A DNA stretch of 64,000 nt, from positions 602,582-666,581 of the forward strand of contig CAVPHR010000001.1 in the NCBI GenBank assembly GCA_963704775.1, read 5' to 3'. The DNA comes from an uncultured Chloroflexia bacterium. Its GTDB lineage: Bacteria; Chloroflexota; Limnocylindria; Limnocylindrales; CSP1-4. Position 1 is the stretch's first letter. Every line of letters starts with the position of its first letter. Both the position numbers and the translations under genes were made by a program. This document shows positions 28,748 to 34,272 of the stretch, one piece after another. The notes below the pieces were generated by a model, which searched no databases, was not told the origin of the DNA, and was given only the letters and a program-made list of their open reading frames with translations.

Positions 28748-30289
28748 TCACGTCGGCATCGTCCGCAATCGTTCGATCAGCCAGTCGGCGCCCTTGACGA
28801 GGCCCGGCAGGTCGATCGATTCGGTCGAGGGACGGTCCGTCGGACGGCCCAGCAGGTAGCCCTGGCCGGCCCCGATCCCGAGCGAGCGGACGACCTCGAG
28901 CTGCGCCGGTGTCTCGATCCCCTCGGCGATCACCAGGGCGCCCCAGCGGTCGGCCAGGTCGCGCAGCGTCTTGACGACCTCGAGCGAGGTGTCGCGGACG
29001 GCCCCGCCCTGGACCAGCGAGAGGTCGATCTTGACGATGTCGAAGCGGAGCTGGCTGAGCAGCCGCAGGCCGGCGTTGCCGGCCCCGACGTCGTCGGCGG
29101 CGAGGCGGATGCCCGCGACCCGGCACGCGTCGCAGGCGCGGCGCAGGCGGTCGACGTCCTCGACGGCCTCGCGCTCGGTCAGCTCCACGACGATGTTCCG
29201 GGGATCCAGGCCGTGGCGGACGATCATCCGCAGGAGCGCGTGCACGCTGAAGTCGTCGCTCTCGAGCGTCCGCGGGGACAGGTTGACCGTGAGCGATCCG
29301 GGGAGGCGCAGCCGGGCCGCGGTCTCCATGACCGTGTTGAGGCACGCGATGTCGAGCTCGCTCGTGCGACCCGTGGCCTCGGCTGCCTCGAAGAGCGAGC
29401 CGGGATCGGTGAAGCCGCTGTCCGGGAGCGGCCGGACGAGGCCCTCGTAGCCGCGCGGCGCACCGGTGGAGAGATCGAAGATCGGCTGGAAGACCGCCCG
29501 GATGGCGCCGGTGGCGGCGACCTGTGCGACGGCCGCGGACAGCTCGGCCGCCGGGCGCTCGGTCACGTGGCTGTCGTGGCTCGAGTCGTAGATCGTCACG
29601 CAGGTCCGGCCGTGCCGCTTGCTCCAGAACAGCGCGCTGTCCGCCTGGCGGTAGAGCGACTCGCGGTCCAGGGCGGGCGTCGGGCCGGCGCTGATCCCGG
29701 CGGAGAACGAGACGGTGTTCGCCGCGCCCCTGCCGACCTCCCCGTCGAGACACGCGGCGAGCAGCCGGCGGACCAGCACCTGCGCCCCGTCGACGTCGGT
29801 GTCCGAGAGGATGAGCGCGAACTCGTCGCCCCCGACGCGGAACGCCCGATCGGAGCGGCGCGTGTAGGCGGCCATCGTCGTCGCGGCCTGGCGCAGGACA
29901 AGGTCGCCAGCGGCGTGCCCGCTCGAATCGTTGAGCCGCTTGAAGTCGTCAAGGTCCAGCAGCGCCAGCGCCATCGAGCGGCCGGTCCTGGCGGCGATGG
30001 CCCACTGGCGTTCCATCTCCTCCTGGAACGCGCGGTGATTGCCGAGGCCGGTCAGGGTGTCGCGCAAGGCCTCGGCCCGAGCCCGGTCGTAGGCATCCTC
30101 GAGGATGCGCCGGGTCTCCTCGAGACGCTCGGCCGGCTCGAGGACGCGCCGCGCCAGCCACACAGTCAGCGCACCCAGGAGCAGGGCCATCGAGAGGAGG
30201 ACGACGGTCGGGACCAGGAGCGACGTCCCCGATCGCGAGGTGAGCCCGTAGATGAAGGGCGCCGCGATGATGATCGGGATCGCGAACAT
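28748..30289 (-). CDS. membrane-anchored GGDEF-EAL protein
   Basis: Two N-terminal TM helices, a GGDEF domain (LTGLGNHRAF, RVGGDEFALI) and an EAL domain (YEGLVRP variant of the EAL site, VVELTE, DDVGAGNAG, AEGIET, QGYLLGRP). Confidence 0.9.
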   Translation of the reverse strand: MFAIPIIIAAPFIYGLTSRSGTSLLVPTVVLLSMALLLGALTVWLARRVLEPAERLEETRRILEDAYDRARAEALRDTLTGLGNHRAFQEEMERQWAIAARTGRSMALALLDLDDFKRLNDSSGHAAGDLVLRQAATTMAAYTRRSDRAFRVGGDEFALILSDTDVDGAQVLVRRLLAACLDGEVGRGAANTVSFSAGISAGPTPALDRESLYRQADSALFWSKRHGRTCVTIYDSSHDSHVTERPAAELSAAVAQVAATGAIRAVFQPIFDLSTGAPRGYEGLVRPLPDSGFTDPGSLFEAAEATGRTSELDIACLNTVMETAARLRLPGSLTVNLSPRTLESDDFSVHALLRMIVRHGLDPRNIVVELTEREAVEDVDRLRRACDACRVAGIRLAADDVGAGNAGLRLLSQLRFDIVKIDLSLVQGGAVRDTSLEVVKTLRDLADRWGALVIAEGIETPAQLEVVRSLGIGAGQGYLLGRPTDRPSTESIDLPGLVKGADWLIERLRTMPT

Positions 30290-30514
30290 GATGACGAGCG
30301 CGAGGAACAGGCGAAGACGAACCAGTCGCAGGTTCGTCGATTCGCCTAGCAGGGCGTCCGGAGCAGCAGGATCGTCGCGGATGGTCCTCTCCCGAGAGTG
30401 CGGTGAGGTCCGTTATAGCCGGGACGAGTCGTGGGCGGACGAGCACCGTCGTACCGGTGCGGATAGGACCAACGGGTCGCCGCCGGGCAACGGGCGCGCG
30501 GTCACGCTGACACC

Positions 30515-31102
30515 GTGTTCATCCTCTACGGGGTCGTGATCGGCCTCCTGGTCGGCGTCCTGACGCGTGGTTCGCCCGCCGGTCTCGGGCAGCTCCGCTT
30601 CCGGTGGAGCCTCCTCGTCATGGTCGGCATGGCCGCCCAGCTGCTCCTGTTCTCGTCGCCACTGGGGAACTCCCTCGGGCTGGCGGCCCCCGCGGTCTAC
30701 ATGGCCACCAACGGCGTCGTGCTCGTCGTGGTCGCCCGGAACCTCGCGATCCCGGGGCTGCCATTGGTCCTGCTCGGCGGTGCGTCGAACCTGCTCGCGA
30801 TGATCGTCAACGGCGGCTACATGCCGGTCAGCCGCGCCGCTCTCGAGGCGATGGGACACGGGCCGGGGACCTCCGGGTACTCCAACAGCGCGCTGCTCGA
30901 GCACGTCACCCTGGCCCCCCTGACGGACATCTTCGCGATGCCGGTCTGGCTGCCGGTCGCCAACGTCTTCAGCGTCGGGGACATCCTGATCGGCGTCGGC
31001 GTCGCGGTCGCCATCGTGGCCGGCATGCACGGGCGCGGGCCGCGCATCGAGGCGCCCGTGGTCGGCGGCCATCCGGACGCCGTTGGTGCGCCCGGGCACT
31101 GA
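30515..31102 (+). CDS. DUF5317-like polytopic membrane protein
   Basis: 195-aa hydrophobic ORF (GTG start), ...NLLAMIVNGGYMPV...LTDIFAMPVWLPVANVFSVGDILIGVGV resembles DUF5317 as I recall it. Divergent from the GGDEF-EAL gene at 30289. Confidence 0.6.
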   Translation: MFILYGVVIGLLVGVLTRGSPAGLGQLRFRWSLLVMVGMAAQLLLFSSPLGNSLGLAAPAVYMATNGVVLVVVARNLAIPGLPLVLLGGASNLLAMIVNGGYMPVSRAALEAMGHGPGTSGYSNSALLEHVTLAPLTDIFAMPVWLPVANVFSVGDILIGVGVAVAIVAGMHGRGPRIEAPVVGGHPDAVGAPGH

Positions 31103-31194
31103 CCCGCACGGGCGGTGCGAATAGGACTATCTCGCCATGGTGACGGGACCATGGTCCGGCCACTCTTCGAGCACGGAGCGAAGGTCGTTCCCCT

Positions 31195-31290
31195 CGATCG
31201 CCATCGTCCAGGGCAAACCCGTCGTGAGACGGCGACGCAAAGCCAGGGATCTCCCCCGGGAGACCGCCCGGCCGCCGGTGACGATCGACT
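31195..31290 (+). promoter_or_regulatory. c-di-GMP-I (GEMM-I) riboswitch aptamer
   Basis: CAGGGCAAACC-[CCGUC GUGA GACGG]-CGACGCAAAGCC at 31209..31245. P2 is capped by a GNRA tetraloop. P3 is 31242..31272 (GCC-A-GGG...CCC-GGC, inner UCUCC/GGAGA). P1 is AUCGUC 31203..31208 with GACGAU 31280..31285. Both 11-nt conserved blocks match the V. cholerae Vc2 aptamer from memory. Confidence 0.8.
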
Positions 31291-31316
31291 TGGCGCACAA
31301 CCACAAGGTAGGTGCC

Positions 31317-31412
31317 GTGAAGGCGAACCTGGCGCGCTTCACATTTGCCATCACGCTTCTGGCGACGATGGCTATGTCCCTCGGCGCGGGCATCAAGTGG
31401 TTCTGGGACTGA
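31317..31412 (+). CDS. 31-aa hydrophobic micro-protein (single predicted TM helix) downstream of the riboswitch
   Basis: AAGGUAGG (31305..31312) lies 4 nt before GTG 31317. Product is VKANLARFTFAITLLATMAMSLGAGIKWFWD. 27 of 31 codons end in G/C, like bona fide genes here. In frame with track ORF 31137..31412. Confidence 0.5.
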   Translation: MKANLARFTFAITLLATMAMSLGAGIKWFWD

Positions 31413-31536
31413 ACGTGATGTTCGATCCCAAGGCCACCCACCTGTCCGACACCGGCCGACCTGGACCCGAATCCGGTCATCGCTGGCGCTGAGCAGCCGG
31501 CGGTCGCCCGACCCCGTGTCGGCGACCCCGAACGAA

Positions 31537-31568
31537 GAGCGGCCCCGATCGGGGCCGCTCTCTCGATT
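31537..31568 (+). terminator. intrinsic terminator closing the riboswitch/micro-ORF unit
   Basis: GAGCGGCCCC-GAUC-GGGGCCGCUC (perfect 10-bp stem) followed by UCUCGAUU. Confidence 0.65.
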
Positions 31569-31587
31569 CCGGGCATAGGACTTTCAG

Positions 31588-34272
31588 GTGGGCGAAGGCC
31601 GGATAGGCTCGGGCGACACTGGCAGCTCGGGACGCCCCAGTCGACGAGCATGCATGCCCCAAACCTCCGGATCGCCGACAACGACACCGACTGACCCACC
31701 CTCGCGCGCGGGCGCGGCAGGGTTACGGCCACAGTGGCTGCACGCCGCCATTCGCGTGCGGCTGTTCATCGTGAGCCTCGTCATCGTCGGGATCTTCGGC
31801 TACCTCGCGATCATCCGCGGGATGCCCCCGGTCGCTGGGAATTTCGTCCTGCTGTGGCCCCTGGCGGCACTCGGCTTCTATCTCGGCGAGACGAATGTCG
31901 TCGTCGTGCACTTCCTGCGCGAGCGGCACTCCTTCTCGCTGAGCGAGCTGCCCGGGGTGATGGGCCTGTTCCTCCTGAGCCCGACGGACTACGTCCTCGC
32001 CTATGTGGTCGGTGCCGGCGCCGCGCTCCTGCTCGACCGCAATCAGTCCGGGGTCAAGCGCGCCTACAACATCGCCCAGGTCTGGATCTGTGCGATCGTG
32101 GGCCTGGCTGTCTTCCACGCCATCGCCGAGCCCGGCCCGACCGTGGGCCCGCGCGACTGGGTCGCCGCGTTCGCGTCGAGCGGCGCGACAGCGGCCCTCG
32201 GAGCGGTCCTCGTCGCGACCGTCATCTCGCTGTCCGGTGGGGCGCCGCAGTTCACGAAGCTGCCCGAGATGCTGCGTTTCAGCAGCATGGTCGCGATGGC
32301 CAATACCAGCCTCGCGCTGCTCGCGGTCATGGTCATCAAGGTGGACCCGCGGTCGGCCCTGCTGCTCGCGGTGCCGACGGCGATCGTCTTCCTCGCCTAT
32401 CGGGCCTACATCGGCGAGCGGGAGAAGCACGAGCGCCTGGAGCTGCTCTACGAATCCAGCCGGCTCCTGCATTACGCGCCGGAGCTCGATTCGGCGATCT
32501 CGGCGCTCCTCGACCATGCCCGCAAGATGTTCCGGGCGGAGCGCGCGGAGATCCTGCTCTTCCCCGATCCGGCCAGTGACGCGGCACTCCGCTCGAGCGC
32601 CGGGGGCGTCGCGGGCCCGGAGACCATGACGCCCCAGGTCGTCCCCGCCGGCGATGCCCTGCGGTCGCGCACGCGTCACGAACACGGGGCGTTCCACGCG
32701 AAGGTGACCGCCGCGTGGACCACGCATCCCGACGCGGTCCAGGAGGCGATGGTCGGCCCGCTCGTCGGCGAGCACGGGACGTTCGGCGCGGTCACGATCA
32801 TCAACCGCCTCGGCGAGGGCAGCCGGTTCGAGGCCGACGACCTGCGCCTGCTCGAGACCATCGCCAACCAGGCGGCCGTCGCCCTGGAGAACGGTCAGCT
32901 GGAGCAGTCACTGCACGAGCTGTCGCGACTCAAGGAGCAGCTCCGGCACCAGGCCTACCACGACTCGCTGACGGGTCTCGGGAACCGGGCGCTCTTCGTC
33001 GAAGAGGTCGAGCGCCGGCTGGCCGGTCCGCGTGACCCCGCCTCCCCGCCCTGTGTCGTGTTCCTGGACCTCGACGACTTCAAGGTCGTCAACGACACGT
33101 ACGGTCACCCGGCCGGCGACGCGTTGCTCGTCGATGTCGCGGAGCGCCTCGGGGCCGAGCTTCGGGACGGCGACCTGCTCGCGCGGTTCGGCGGCGACGA
33201 GTTCGCGGTCCTGCCGCGGGACGGGGCGAGCGTCGAGGACGCGATGGCCATGACCGAGCGGATCATCGTCGCGCTCGAGCTGCCATTCCCGGTCGCGGGG
33301 ACCGACGTCATCGTCGGCTGCAGCGTCGGGATCAGCGTCGCCCGCGGCGGCGAGCTCGTCGACGAGTTGCTGCGCGACGCCGACGTGGCGATGTACCGGG
33401 CCAAGGCCGACGGCAAGCGCCGCGCCGAGGTCTTCGACCCGAAGATGCACCGCTCGATCGTCGAGCGGCACGAGCTCAACACCGACCTCGGTCGCAGCCT
33501 CAAGCAGGGCGACCTGGCGGTCTTCTACCAGCCGATCGTCCAGCTCACAACGGGCCGGATCGTAGGCGTCGAGGCGCTGGTGCGCTGGCGACACCCGACC
33601 CGCGGCCTCGTCGACCCGGCCGACTTCATCCGCCTCGCCGAGGAGAACGGCAAGATCGTCGCGCTCGGTCGGGCGGTCCTCCAGACGGCCACGCGCCAGG
33701 TGGTGGAGTGGCACCGTCTGCCCGGGCTCGAGACGCTCGCGCTCAGCGTCAACCTCTCGCCGCTCCAGCTCCAGCACGAGGGCTTCATCGACGAGGTCAC
33801 CGTCGACCTGCGCGAATCCGGCATCGACCCGCGCGACCTGACGTTCGAGATGACCGAGACCGCGATGTTCCGCGACACCCAGGCCACCATCGTGACGCTC
33901 GACGTGCTGCGCGAACTGGGCGTGCGGATCGCGATGGACGACTTCGGGACGGGCTACTCGTCGCTCGCCTACCTGCGTCGCTTCCCTGTCGACATCCTCA
34001 AGATCGCCCGCGAGCTCATCGGCGGGCCGGGCGAGGCGGAGGAGCGCGAGGCATGGGCCTTCGCCAAGGCGATCCTGGCGCTCGGGCGCTCGCTCGGGCT
34101 GACGGTCGTCGCGGAAGGCATCGAGACAGACGAGCAGCTCCGGATGCTGCGTCGTCTCGGCTGCGAGCTGGGTCAGGGCTACCTGCTCGGCCGCCCGGCC
34201 TCTGCCGAGGAGATCGAGGCTCACCTGCTCGAGAATGCGCTGGGCCCGCTCGACGAGCGCGTCACCGCCTGA
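31588..34272 (+). CDS. polytopic membrane sensor with GAF-like, GGDEF and EAL domains
   Basis: Track ORF from GTG 31588 (alternative ATG 31654). About 8 TM helices, then LTGLGNRALF, RFGGDEFAV, VEALVRW, EMTE, DDFGTGYSSL, AEGIET, QGYLLGRP. Both catalytic motifs are canonical. Confidence 0.9.
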   Translation: MGEGRIGSGDTGSSGRPSRRACMPQTSGSPTTTPTDPPSRAGAAGLRPQWLHAAIRVRLFIVSLVIVGIFGYLAIIRGMPPVAGNFVLLWPLAALGFYLGETNVVVVHFLRERHSFSLSELPGVMGLFLLSPTDYVLAYVVGAGAALLLDRNQSGVKRAYNIAQVWICAIVGLAVFHAIAEPGPTVGPRDWVAAFASSGATAALGAVLVATVISLSGGAPQFTKLPEMLRFSSMVAMANTSLALLAVMVIKVDPRSALLLAVPTAIVFLAYRAYIGEREKHERLELLYESSRLLHYAPELDSAISALLDHARKMFRAERAEILLFPDPASDAALRSSAGGVAGPETMTPQVVPAGDALRSRTRHEHGAFHAKVTAAWTTHPDAVQEAMVGPLVGEHGTFGAVTIINRLGEGSRFEADDLRLLETIANQAAVALENGQLEQSLHELSRLKEQLRHQAYHDSLTGLGNRALFVEEVERRLAGPRDPASPPCVVFLDLDDFKVVNDTYGHPAGDALLVDVAERLGAELRDGDLLARFGGDEFAVLPRDGASVEDAMAMTERIIVALELPFPVAGTDVIVGCSVGISVARGGELVDELLRDADVAMYRAKADGKRRAEVFDPKMHRSIVERHELNTDLGRSLKQGDLAVFYQPIVQLTTGRIVGVEALVRWRHPTRGLVDPADFIRLAEENGKIVALGRAVLQTATRQVVEWHRLPGLETLALSVNLSPLQLQHEGFIDEVTVDLRESGIDPRDLTFEMTETAMFRDTQATIVTLDVLRELGVRIAMDDFGTGYSSLAYLRRFPVDILKIARELIGGPGEAEEREAWAFAKAILALGRSLGLTVVAEGIETDEQLRMLRRLGCELGQGYLLGRPASAEEIEAHLLENALGPLDERVTA

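Follow-up and report, generated by a model that had tools for sequence, protein, structure and literature searches.

What does a riboswitch for cyclic di-GMP (c-di-GMP) control when the first open reading frame (ORF) behind it encodes a peptide of only 31 residues? This question is raised by a locus in a 64,000-nucleotide stretch of DNA from an uncultured Chloroflexia bacterium of soil (contig CAVPHR010000001.1 of assembly GCA_963704775.1, positions 602,582 to 666,581), the whole of which is called the window here. An initial annotation, made from the sequence alone, had described a class I c-di-GMP riboswitch driving a hydrophobic micro-ORF (ORF1) as a self-contained unit. Self-contained the unit remains, as aptamer, ORF and terminal hairpin travel together; it holds two ORFs, not one. 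According to the reading favoured here, which is given a probability of roughly 0.6, the riboswitch controls this two-ORF unit at the level of translation, through a platform of two alternative structures in the start of ORF1, and its ligand turns the unit OFF.

The aptamer and the two small genes behind it

When the whole window was scanned with cmscan, a single Rfam match at gathering level was obtained. This is RF01051 (c-di-GMP-I) at 31202..31279 of the plus strand, with 53.1 bits against a cut-off of 35, an E-value of 1.5e-7, and the model covered full-length (1-87). The class I assignment of the initial annotation is thereby upheld, the positions that it gave are all correct, and the core blocks that it had pointed out (CAGGGCAAACC...GACGCAAAGCC) are present together with the GUGA tetraloop of helix P2. 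Conservation was examined in an alignment of 81 distinct homologous leaders (alignment A2), to which all counts of leaders below refer. Helices P1a, P2 and P3 are backed by compensatory changes: 85.9% of helix cells are paired versus 81.4% in shuffled alignments, 143 cells with double changes are observed versus 58, and 0 of 500 shuffles reach the observed value. The paired fraction is 84% for P1a, 97% for P2 and 94-96% for P3, and 14 pairs carry double changes. The three ligand-contacting positions, G31212 (before GC), A31239 in ACGCAAAG and the C of J3/1 GC at 31274-75, are invariant in the 81 sequences, and ACGCAAAGCC, with A at the A47 position, is found in 81/81 leaders. The numbers G20, A47 and C92 are those of the Vc2 aptamer, and are assumed to apply here. 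The 6-bp P1 drawn initially (AUCGUC with GACGAU) stands in its letters; covariation supports the inner pairing AUCG with CGGU. As a family feature the outer extension found no support, with 37% of cells paired in a test limited by the alignment, whose columns contain indels that account for the low value. Judging from the alignment, AUCGUC/GACGAU is a clade-specific outer extension of P1.

The clan sibling RF03167 (c-di-GMP-I-GGC) reached 52.4 bits in a permissive scan of 31100-31600, under its cut-off of 59. Its consensus ACGCGAA and the ACGCAAA of the window differ exactly at the variant-defining position, and therefore the aptamer is classed as the canonical c-di-GMP-I type, its three contacts with the ligand being G, A and C. 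The letters GGC are presumed here, in line with the RF03167 consensus, to stand for positions 20, 47 and 92. By its sequence the element is a class I riboswitch, and its predicted aptamer would sense c-di-GMP. Among homologous loci (numbered with the prefix L), several are assigned to RF03167 by Rfam with 60-71 bits (L007, L012, L028, L036, L044, L050, L067, L069, L078, L079, L129, L139 and L141). Those included in the alignment all have A, not G, at the variant position (ACGCAAAG), and the aptamers of L129, L139 and L141 were matched only by a pattern that itself requires ACGCAAA. These assignments look like cross-assignment of GC-rich canonical aptamers within the clan.

The aptamer accompanies ORF1 practically throughout its distribution. 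A strict GEMM-I core pattern lies 99-117 nucleotides (nt) 5' of ORF1 in 80 of 84 copies; two of the 4 misses are cut at contig ends, and the others (L050 and L067) have an A-for-G variant core, GCAAAACC, and are still Rfam hits. Rfam models place an aptamer at the expected position in all 14 of the diverse loci scanned, and loci with two peptides have two aptamers. Tandem duplication of the whole aptamer-plus-peptide unit, each copy with its own riboswitch, was also seen in the loci listed in Table 1.

ORF1 itself, with GTG at 31317, the stop TGA at 31410-12, 27 of 31 codons ending in G or C, and the Shine-Dalgarno (SD) sequence AAGGUAGG, is present as the initial annotation had it. With the 42-residue in-frame extension as query, 22 protein clusters were obtained, and an exhaustive phmmer search with the 31-mer gave 38 representatives. 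All of these homologues are this peptide, either alone (28-31 residues) or as the C-terminal part of over-called ORFs, whose N-terminal parts are an in-frame translation of the riboswitch (e.g. VQGKP..RGRKARDL). A genome scan with the peptide alignment gave at least 119 loci, nearly all in metagenome-assembled genomes of Chloroflexota / Ca. Limnocylindria, and 80 of them were retrieved for analysis; one, L003, shares ~98% identity with the window over the genes on either side. The GTG start is universal, the copies are 28-46 residues long, and all have a GAGGUG- or AAGGAG-type SD 5-10 nt 5' of GTG. GTG 31317 is taken as the start because the distances from aptamer to GTG include non-multiples of three and no upstream frame is conserved. 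From codon 9 to codon 27, conserved residues (A16, A19, L22, G23, A24, G25) are encoded by 3-5 synonymous codons each, which indicates selection on the protein and agrees with the coding status first proposed.

The peptide has a basic N-terminus, KANLAR(F), a transmembrane (TM) segment, and a Trp-rich C-terminus with (K/R)W. Its best 17-residue hydropathy, 1.84, is consistent with one TM helix, and the predicted helix shows a small-xxx-small face of the AxxxG/SxxxG kind (AMSLGAG). Taken from these comparisons, ORF1 is a real, conserved gene for a hydrophobic, predicted single-TM peptide. Searches of ORF1 and ORF2 against Pfam and NCBIfam gave no family at E <= 0.1 except a chance match to Maff2 of 13 bits. 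A precursor of a ribosomally synthesized and post-translationally modified peptide (RiPP) was considered and rejected, as two syntenic loci, inspected for called genes and Pfam domains, have no RiPP-type modification enzymes beside the unit. An attenuation leader was rejected as well: the gene that follows is not constant across lineages, and selection acts on both peptides at the level of the protein. A metagenome protein of 70 residues, P0030, has ORF1 and a hydrophobic ORF2 fused (VKANLARFT...GAGIQVKAVLRSQ...EAGRRWS), and is either a natural fusion or an artefact of gene calling or sequencing.

The second ORF was recognized in the alignment 3' of ORF1, where the conserved block GGNCAYCGCTGG is followed by a stop. 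This block is the end of an ORF of 9-35 residues in 76 of 84 copies, with the C-terminus (A/S)G(H/L/Q/R)RW plus 0-3 residues. The tail is protein-coding, because its Gly codons (GGT/GGC/GGA/GGG = 28/21/12/12) and His codons (CAT/CAC = 29/24) are fully mixed. In most copies ORF2 starts between -10 and +6 nt from the ORF1 stop (e.g. GTGATG or TAGCCATG); such overlap or abutment is a hallmark of coupling, and by this sign ORF2 is predicted to be translationally coupled to ORF1. Several clades have a hydrophobic ORF2 that is a paralogue of ORF1 (MKxxxxxQxFRxLxxLxxLASSALVxEAGHRW, 33 residues, hydropathy about 2), in some it is merely MAPLAGHRW (9 residues), and in the window's clade it is hydrophilic (24-25 residues in the window). 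The ORF2 of the window would retain only the conserved ...(A/S)GHRW tail of an ancestrally paralogous TM peptide.

The unit ends in a hairpin that had been described as 10 bp long with a U-rich tail. The stem is indeed perfect (31537-46/31551-60); the tail UCUCGAUUCC is pyrimidine-rich and moderately U-rich, and a simple intrinsic-terminator scan of 30500-32500 returns no site at all, the hairpin at 31537-60 included. Most loci have a strong hairpin of 10-14 bp about 20-45 nt 3' of ORF2 (mean -23 kcal/mol), with stems that covary and a pyrimidine-rich tail.

A candidate expression platform in the first codons of ORF1

How the aptamer acts on ORF1 had been left open initially. As to ON or OFF this caution is kept, and the direction proposed below is inferred; as to the place, the comparative data seem to locate the expression platform in the first 26 nt of ORF1. 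This segment, GTGAAGGCGAACCTGGCGCGCTTCAC, is identical in 80/81 leaders, including the four-fold sites of GCG, CTG, GCG and CGC, and codons 1-8 show one synonymous change among 81 sequences. The linker between aptamer and SD is freely variable in length and sequence. A conserved anti-SD in the linker was looked for and rejected; RNAalifold finds none, the linker varies, and only individual small hairpins overlap the SD. No terminator-like site was found between 31280 and 31317, where the spacer to the SD is ~25 nt. Translational control is proposed because no terminator fits between aptamer and SD.

Two structures can be drawn for the 26-mer. One is a local hairpin, GUGAAGGCG / CGC-G-CUUCAC, of -10.3 kcal/mol, which buries the GUG start codon, with G1 of GUG paired to C26. 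The other, favoured over the hairpin by RNAalifold across the leaders, is a long-range pairing with the aptamer. In it, CGUCCAGG (31205-12), which is the 5' strand of P1 plus all of J1/2 and includes the G20 equivalent, pairs with CCUGGCGCG (31328-36), and YGCC (31273-76), which is the end of P3 plus J3/1 with the C92 equivalent and the first P1 base, pairs with GGCG (31322-25). Each third-codon base of codons 1-8 has a partner in at least one of the two forms. Positions 12 and 15, in the hairpin loop, have one in the long-range form only; for G1 of the universal GUG and the last base of the codons CGC and UUC, the only partner is in the hairpin. The apparent reason why the synonymous sites of the eight codons are frozen is their pairing with the aptamer's ligand-binding junction. 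The J1/2 sequence UCCAGG is atypical for GEMM-I, for which the Rfam consensus is A-rich, and this departure makes it complementary to the CCUGG of ORF1.

The native codons also stand out among the alternatives. Of 18,432 synonymous recodings of VKANLARFT, only 14 equal the native sequence on two measures at once: it ranks within the top 0.9% by stability of the hairpin and within the top 3.8% by energy of the duplex with the junction. Where the N-terminus has changed in metagenome relatives, both structures mostly persist, with a re-registered hairpin in one lineage. Copies with VKDKLTRL have neither structure, and neither do L139 and L141, in which J1/2 reads AUAAAG. In these last two loci (L139 1461-1606, L141 1062-1209), J1/2 is A-rich and the ORF start, VK(T/S)ILARLS, is without start hairpin or junction complementarity; going by the alignment, this sub-lineage must use a different expression platform.

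The following mechanism is proposed for the window. A short self-terminated transcript, headed by the riboswitch, would encode two translationally coupled micro-proteins, and the first 26 nt of ORF1 would serve as a switching element with two mutually exclusive structures. When ligand is absent, the junction strands would capture the ORF1 start and open the hairpin, so that GUG is exposed and translation is ON. When c-di-GMP is bound, the junction strands would be occupied, the hairpin would re-form over GUG, and ORF1 would be OFF. As ORF1 falls, ORF2 would fall too through translational coupling. With moderate confidence, c-di-GMP is taken to be the OFF signal. A precedent by analogy may be seen in Clostridioides difficile, in which class I switches on small membrane proteins are OFF switches. 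Constrained folding gives an unpaired probability for GUG of 0.40 in the long-range conformer versus 0.12 in the aptamer-plus-hairpin conformer, and the conformers are near-isoenergetic (G_L - G_A = +2.3 +/- 3.6 kcal/mol). Such three-state modelling lends the OFF direction a weak lean, and thermodynamics alone leaves ON versus OFF unsettled.

Several observations weigh against this mechanism. The recoding test becomes weak when codons are restricted to those ending in G or C, 5.6% of the 72 variants being as good on both measures. Unconstrained ensembles populate the long-range pairing at P about 0.02, and across the 81 leaders no consistent shift in SD or start accessibility is seen between free and aptamer-enforced ensembles. 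Neither structure shows classical compensatory covariation, because the partners are invariant. The sole synonymous exception, L076, also has a rearranged J1/2, and its change is not clearly compensatory. Finally, the long-range conformer still pairs +6 to +20 of ORF1 and could itself block the ribosome, which makes ON logic possible.

This last point leads to the same anatomy with the logic reversed: the ligand would free the ORF1 start from the junction and turn translation ON, the long-range pairing being the OFF state. Such a switch has to be taken seriously as a rival: the ribosome footprint covers the long-range helix too, and both the near-equal energies of the conformers and the fact that many GEMM-I riboswitches are ON switches speak for it. 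It requires a local hairpin that is weak in vivo or opened by a standby ribosome. Selection, however, has kept a hairpin of -10 to -11 kcal/mol that buries GUG, as seen from the invariant third-position C of CGC and UUC and the universal GUG, and the modelled accessibility of GUG is the lower of the two where the aptamer is formed. As the start hairpin forms whenever the ORF1 start is released, lower accessibility would be expected with ligand bound. ON logic is therefore considered possible but unlikely, and OFF with ligand is kept as the preferred direction.

Neighbouring genes and the possible role of the peptides

The genes on both sides of the unit were confirmed by Pfam as a DUF5317 membrane protein gene and a GAF-GGDEF-EAL gene, in agreement with the initial annotation (Table 1). 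Its description of the unit as lying between these two genes has to be revised. When the window proteins were compared by tblastn with all loci, DUF5317 was found directly 5' and on the same strand in every peptide-anchored locus having upstream sequence; it is the invariant partner. The GAF-GGDEF-EAL gene is 3' of the unit in the window's clade only, lies 5' of DUF5317 in most other lineages, and is missing in 14 of 82 loci, and leuC is directly 3' of the unit in L025, L038, L043, L053 and L068. The unit is vertically inherited in Ca. Limnocylindria (Chloroflexota), usually near GGDEF-EAL genes, and the GAF-GGDEF-EAL gene is a neighbour outside the riboswitch unit. The longest-ORF start of this gene, GTG 31588, is probably too far 5' (the orthologue in L001 has 853 residues versus 894), and the true start is probably ATG 31654 or later, ~90 nt past the hairpin.

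Table 1. Positions of the riboswitch unit, its parts and its neighbours in the window; tandem copies are given in the coordinates of their own loci.
Feature	Position	Strand	Basis or remark
c-di-GMP-I (GEMM-I) aptamer	31202..31280	+	RF01051; helix covariation
P1	31203-06/31276-79	+	inner pairing AUCG with CGGU, from covariation
J1/2 UCCAGG	31207-12	+	part of aptamer
A47-equivalent A31239 within ACGCAAAG	31239	+	alignment to Rfam consensus
J3/1 GC	31274-75	+	part of aptamer
Shine-Dalgarno AAGGUAGG of ORF1	31306..31313	+	GAGGUG/AAGGAG-type motif
ORF1, predicted single-TM micro-protein of 31 residues, (V/M)KANLARFTFAITLLATMAMSLGAGIKWFWD	31317..31412	+	homologues, codon pattern
Invariant 26-mer GUGAAGGCGAACCUGGCGCGCUUCAC, proposed expression platform in coding sequence	31317..31342	+	alignment, folding, recoding
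ORF2, MFDPKATHLSDTGRPGPESGHRWR	31415..31492 (GTG 31415 or ATG 31418)	+	downstream alignment, codon mix
Terminator-like hairpin, 10-bp GC stem, GAUC loop, tail UCUCGAUUCC	31537..31570	+	sequence
Leader hairpin H0, GGAGCG-AAGGU-CGUUCC	31175..31191	+	seen just 5' of aptamer in alignment A2
Second leader hairpin, CCAUGGU-GACGGG-ACCAUGG	31135-31154		5' of aptamer
TAGGACT, possible -10-like element of riboswitch unit	31122..31128	+	motif recurrence
DUF5317 membrane protein gene	30515..31102	+	Pfam PF17248, 87.3 bits vs cut-off 25
GAF-GGDEF-EAL membrane protein gene	31588..34272	+	Pfam
Second GGDEF-EAL gene	28748..30289	-	ilvBN and leuCD beyond
Tandem copies of the unit	L012 4398-4601, 4886-5090; L019 4410, 4998; L027 5001, 5499; L052 4310, 4877; L122 3349, 3870

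Two of these features lie in the leader. At the position of H0, a hairpin with differing stem sequences was seen by eye in most relatives in alignment A2. The motif TAGGACT at 31122 has CTGACC 17 nt 5' of it, overlapping the DUF5317 stop codon. Plus-strand sites of the form TAGGAC(T/C) are found at 30464-30470 (before DUF5317), 31122-31128, 31576-31582 (before GGDEF-EAL) and 1055-1061, and the TAGGACT sites at 30464 and 31122 have the prefix GGTGCG(G/A)A in common. This recurrence suggests three separately promoted and similarly controlled units, and TAGGAC(T/C) may represent either a -10-like element common to them or the target of a regulator; the number of sites is not above chance (4 versus 2.8 expected, with >=4 in 28 of 100 shuffles). 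A sigma-70 promoter scan of 30500-32500 gave no match. The unit may therefore be co-transcribed with DUF5317, which counts against a separate short transcript.

The short distance to the GGDEF-EAL gene invites another explanation of the locus, namely that the riboswitch controls the gene at 31588 by read-through and that the small ORFs are incidental or leader peptides. In the window this gene follows within about 90 nt, the tail of the hairpin is weakly U-rich, and the simple terminator scan misses the hairpin. Nevertheless, aptamer, both ORFs and hairpin are kept where GGDEF-EAL is 5' of DUF5317 or where the unit is followed by leuC or other genes, selection at the protein level is seen in both ORFs, and a TAGGACT motif shared with other units sits between the hairpin and the GGDEF-EAL start. 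Because the unit is conserved while the downstream gene varies between lineages, the riboswitch does not simply control the gene at 31588, a possibility that the initial annotation had named as fatal to its view; the read-through explanation is regarded as very improbable. A different function for ORF1 has also been weighed: a membrane-perturbing peptide like type I toxins or holins, without a specific partner, for which the riboswitch replaces the antisense RNA. Type I toxins such as TisB and Fst are likewise small, span the membrane with one helix and have their start codon buried. Against such a toxin-like role speaks the vertical inheritance of the unit, in strict synteny with DUF5317 and among housekeeping ilv-leu genes. 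The conserved small-xxx-small face of the helix, together with the invariant N-terminus, moreover suggests that something specific is recognized. Neither antisense RNA nor mobile elements were noticed in the surroundings, in an inspection that did not extend to PADLOC or toxin libraries, and this role is held to be improbable.

The likeliest role of the peptide, as inferred from its neighbourhood, is that of a small TM modulator of DUF5317 or of adjacent membrane GGDEF-EAL enzymes. The peptides would act in the membrane on one of these proteins and so form a feedback or output arm of c-di-GMP signalling. Among metagenome loci anchored on DUF5317, the unit is present in 41 and absent in 16 of 57 that could be evaluated. 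Any partnership is therefore not obligatory for DUF5317, which weighs against the proposed reading. DUF5317 genes without riboswitch or peptide within 2.5 kb are those of L109, L110, L130, L132, L136-L138, L142, L145, L150, L151, L153, L155-L157 and L159, of which L155-L157 and L159 were judged by pattern, without an Rfam scan. These may be paralogues, or may belong to lineages that lost the unit.

What DUF5317 does was approached by comparison. No paper on the family was found in the literature searched. Its AlphaFold2 (AF2) model, with a mean confidence (pLDDT) of 76.7, has five TM helices plus a re-entrant region; Foldseek with this model gave no PDB fold match, and a hidden Markov model search gave no PDB sequence match. 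The N-terminal membrane domain of the GGDEF-EAL protein has no detectable similarity to DUF5317. Collinear sub-threshold matches to Peptidase_A8 (PF01252, signal peptidase II) were obtained in 26 of 45 DUF5317 members, with 8-13 bits against a cut-off of 25. Alignment by hhalign with LspA of Escherichia coli (E 0.12) is confined to an FNxAD-like motif, where FSVGDILIGVGVAVAIV is aligned to FNLADTAICVGAALIV. The DUF5317 motif FSxGDxLIGVGxA aligns with FNLADTAICVGAA of LspA, and the first catalytic Asp seems absent. Membership of DUF5317 in Peptidase_A8 was rejected, as the scores are below 25 bits and the two catalytic Asp motifs are not both found; what is left is a hint of a remote relationship, a lead and not membership. 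The segment ...L-S-L-G-A-G... of ORF1 resembles a lipobox without Cys. A speculative and rather doubtful extension is that the peptides are c-di-GMP-gated ligands or pseudo-substrates of DUF5317, as a remote and possibly non-catalytic signal-peptidase relative, and thereby tune the GGDEF-EAL enzymes. If true, a feedback loop from riboswitch to micropeptide to membrane enzyme would exist, with the switching helix written in the first eight codons of the peptide.

Comparison with known systems

Compared with Vc2 and canonical RF01051 members, the aptamer of the window has the same three-helix junction and a GNRA tetraloop on P2; in the consensus alignment its ligand contacts are likewise G, A and C. 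Its J1/2, in contrast, is UCCAGG and not the A-rich AAAAAG, and its output is a micro-peptide operon. With RF03167 it shares a compact GC-rich architecture in which P1 is part of the model, and many relatives score above the cut-off of that family; all 81 leaders, however, have ACGCAAA and not ACGCGAA, and the window itself scores below the cut-off.

Riboswitches with an expression platform that extends into the coding region are known from E. coli btuB and lysC. There, as proposed here, initiation of translation is regulated by pairing that involves the opening codons of the gene under control. Unlike in those cases, the coding segment of the window would pair with the ligand-contacting junction strands, and its synonymous sites are frozen across about 100 species. 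The eight codons thus offer a clean natural example of dual coding and, as proposed, a compact translational switch.

KdpF, AcrZ, MgtS and CydX are small membrane proteins that modulate larger membrane proteins. ORF1 resembles them as a predicted single-TM peptide of ~30 residues encoded beside the gene of a polytopic membrane protein; it differs in that its expression would be gated by a second-messenger riboswitch, and in that its partner is proposed from gene order. The synteny provides a first functional context for DUF5317, namely c-di-GMP signalling and a peptide partner. The present analysis also flags ORF2, an ORF of 9-35 residues with a conserved GHRW C-terminus.

The initial annotation had known of no described effector of this kind. 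Such a case is now described in C. difficile, where the class I switches Cdi1_6 and Cdi1_8-11 control the CD1980.2 family of 58-residue membrane-associated proteins (bioRxiv 10.64898/2026.06.10.731418). According to this June 2026 preprint, these five switches are OFF by premature transcription termination and promote sporulation, and no homologues of the CD1980.2 family outside C. difficile are reported (bioRxiv 10.64898/2026.06.10.731418). A c-di-GMP riboswitch driving small membrane proteins is therefore already known, and it is phylum, peptide family, mode of control, ORF2 and DUF5317 synteny that differ. Both systems have a GEMM-I aptamer directly 5' of a gene for a small, previously unannotated membrane-associated protein, and both have multicopy or duplicated units. 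c-di-GMP represses the C. difficile genes; in the system of the window, repression is the predicted direction. The two belong to different phyla, and their peptides (31 versus 58 residues) are set apart as families by description. Termination control in C. difficile contrasts with the window, which lacks a terminator between aptamer and ORF and has its proposed platform in coding sequence. Also, the unit of the window has a coupled ORF2 and an obligate DUF5317 neighbour, and the C. difficile function, sporulation, is not expected in Limnocylindria. The locus represents a second, independent and distant case of a c-di-GMP riboswitch that drives micro-proteins and not enzymes, adhesins or flagella. 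Together the two cases suggest that second-messenger riboswitches repeatedly have small membrane peptides as their output, a class missed by annotation pipelines.

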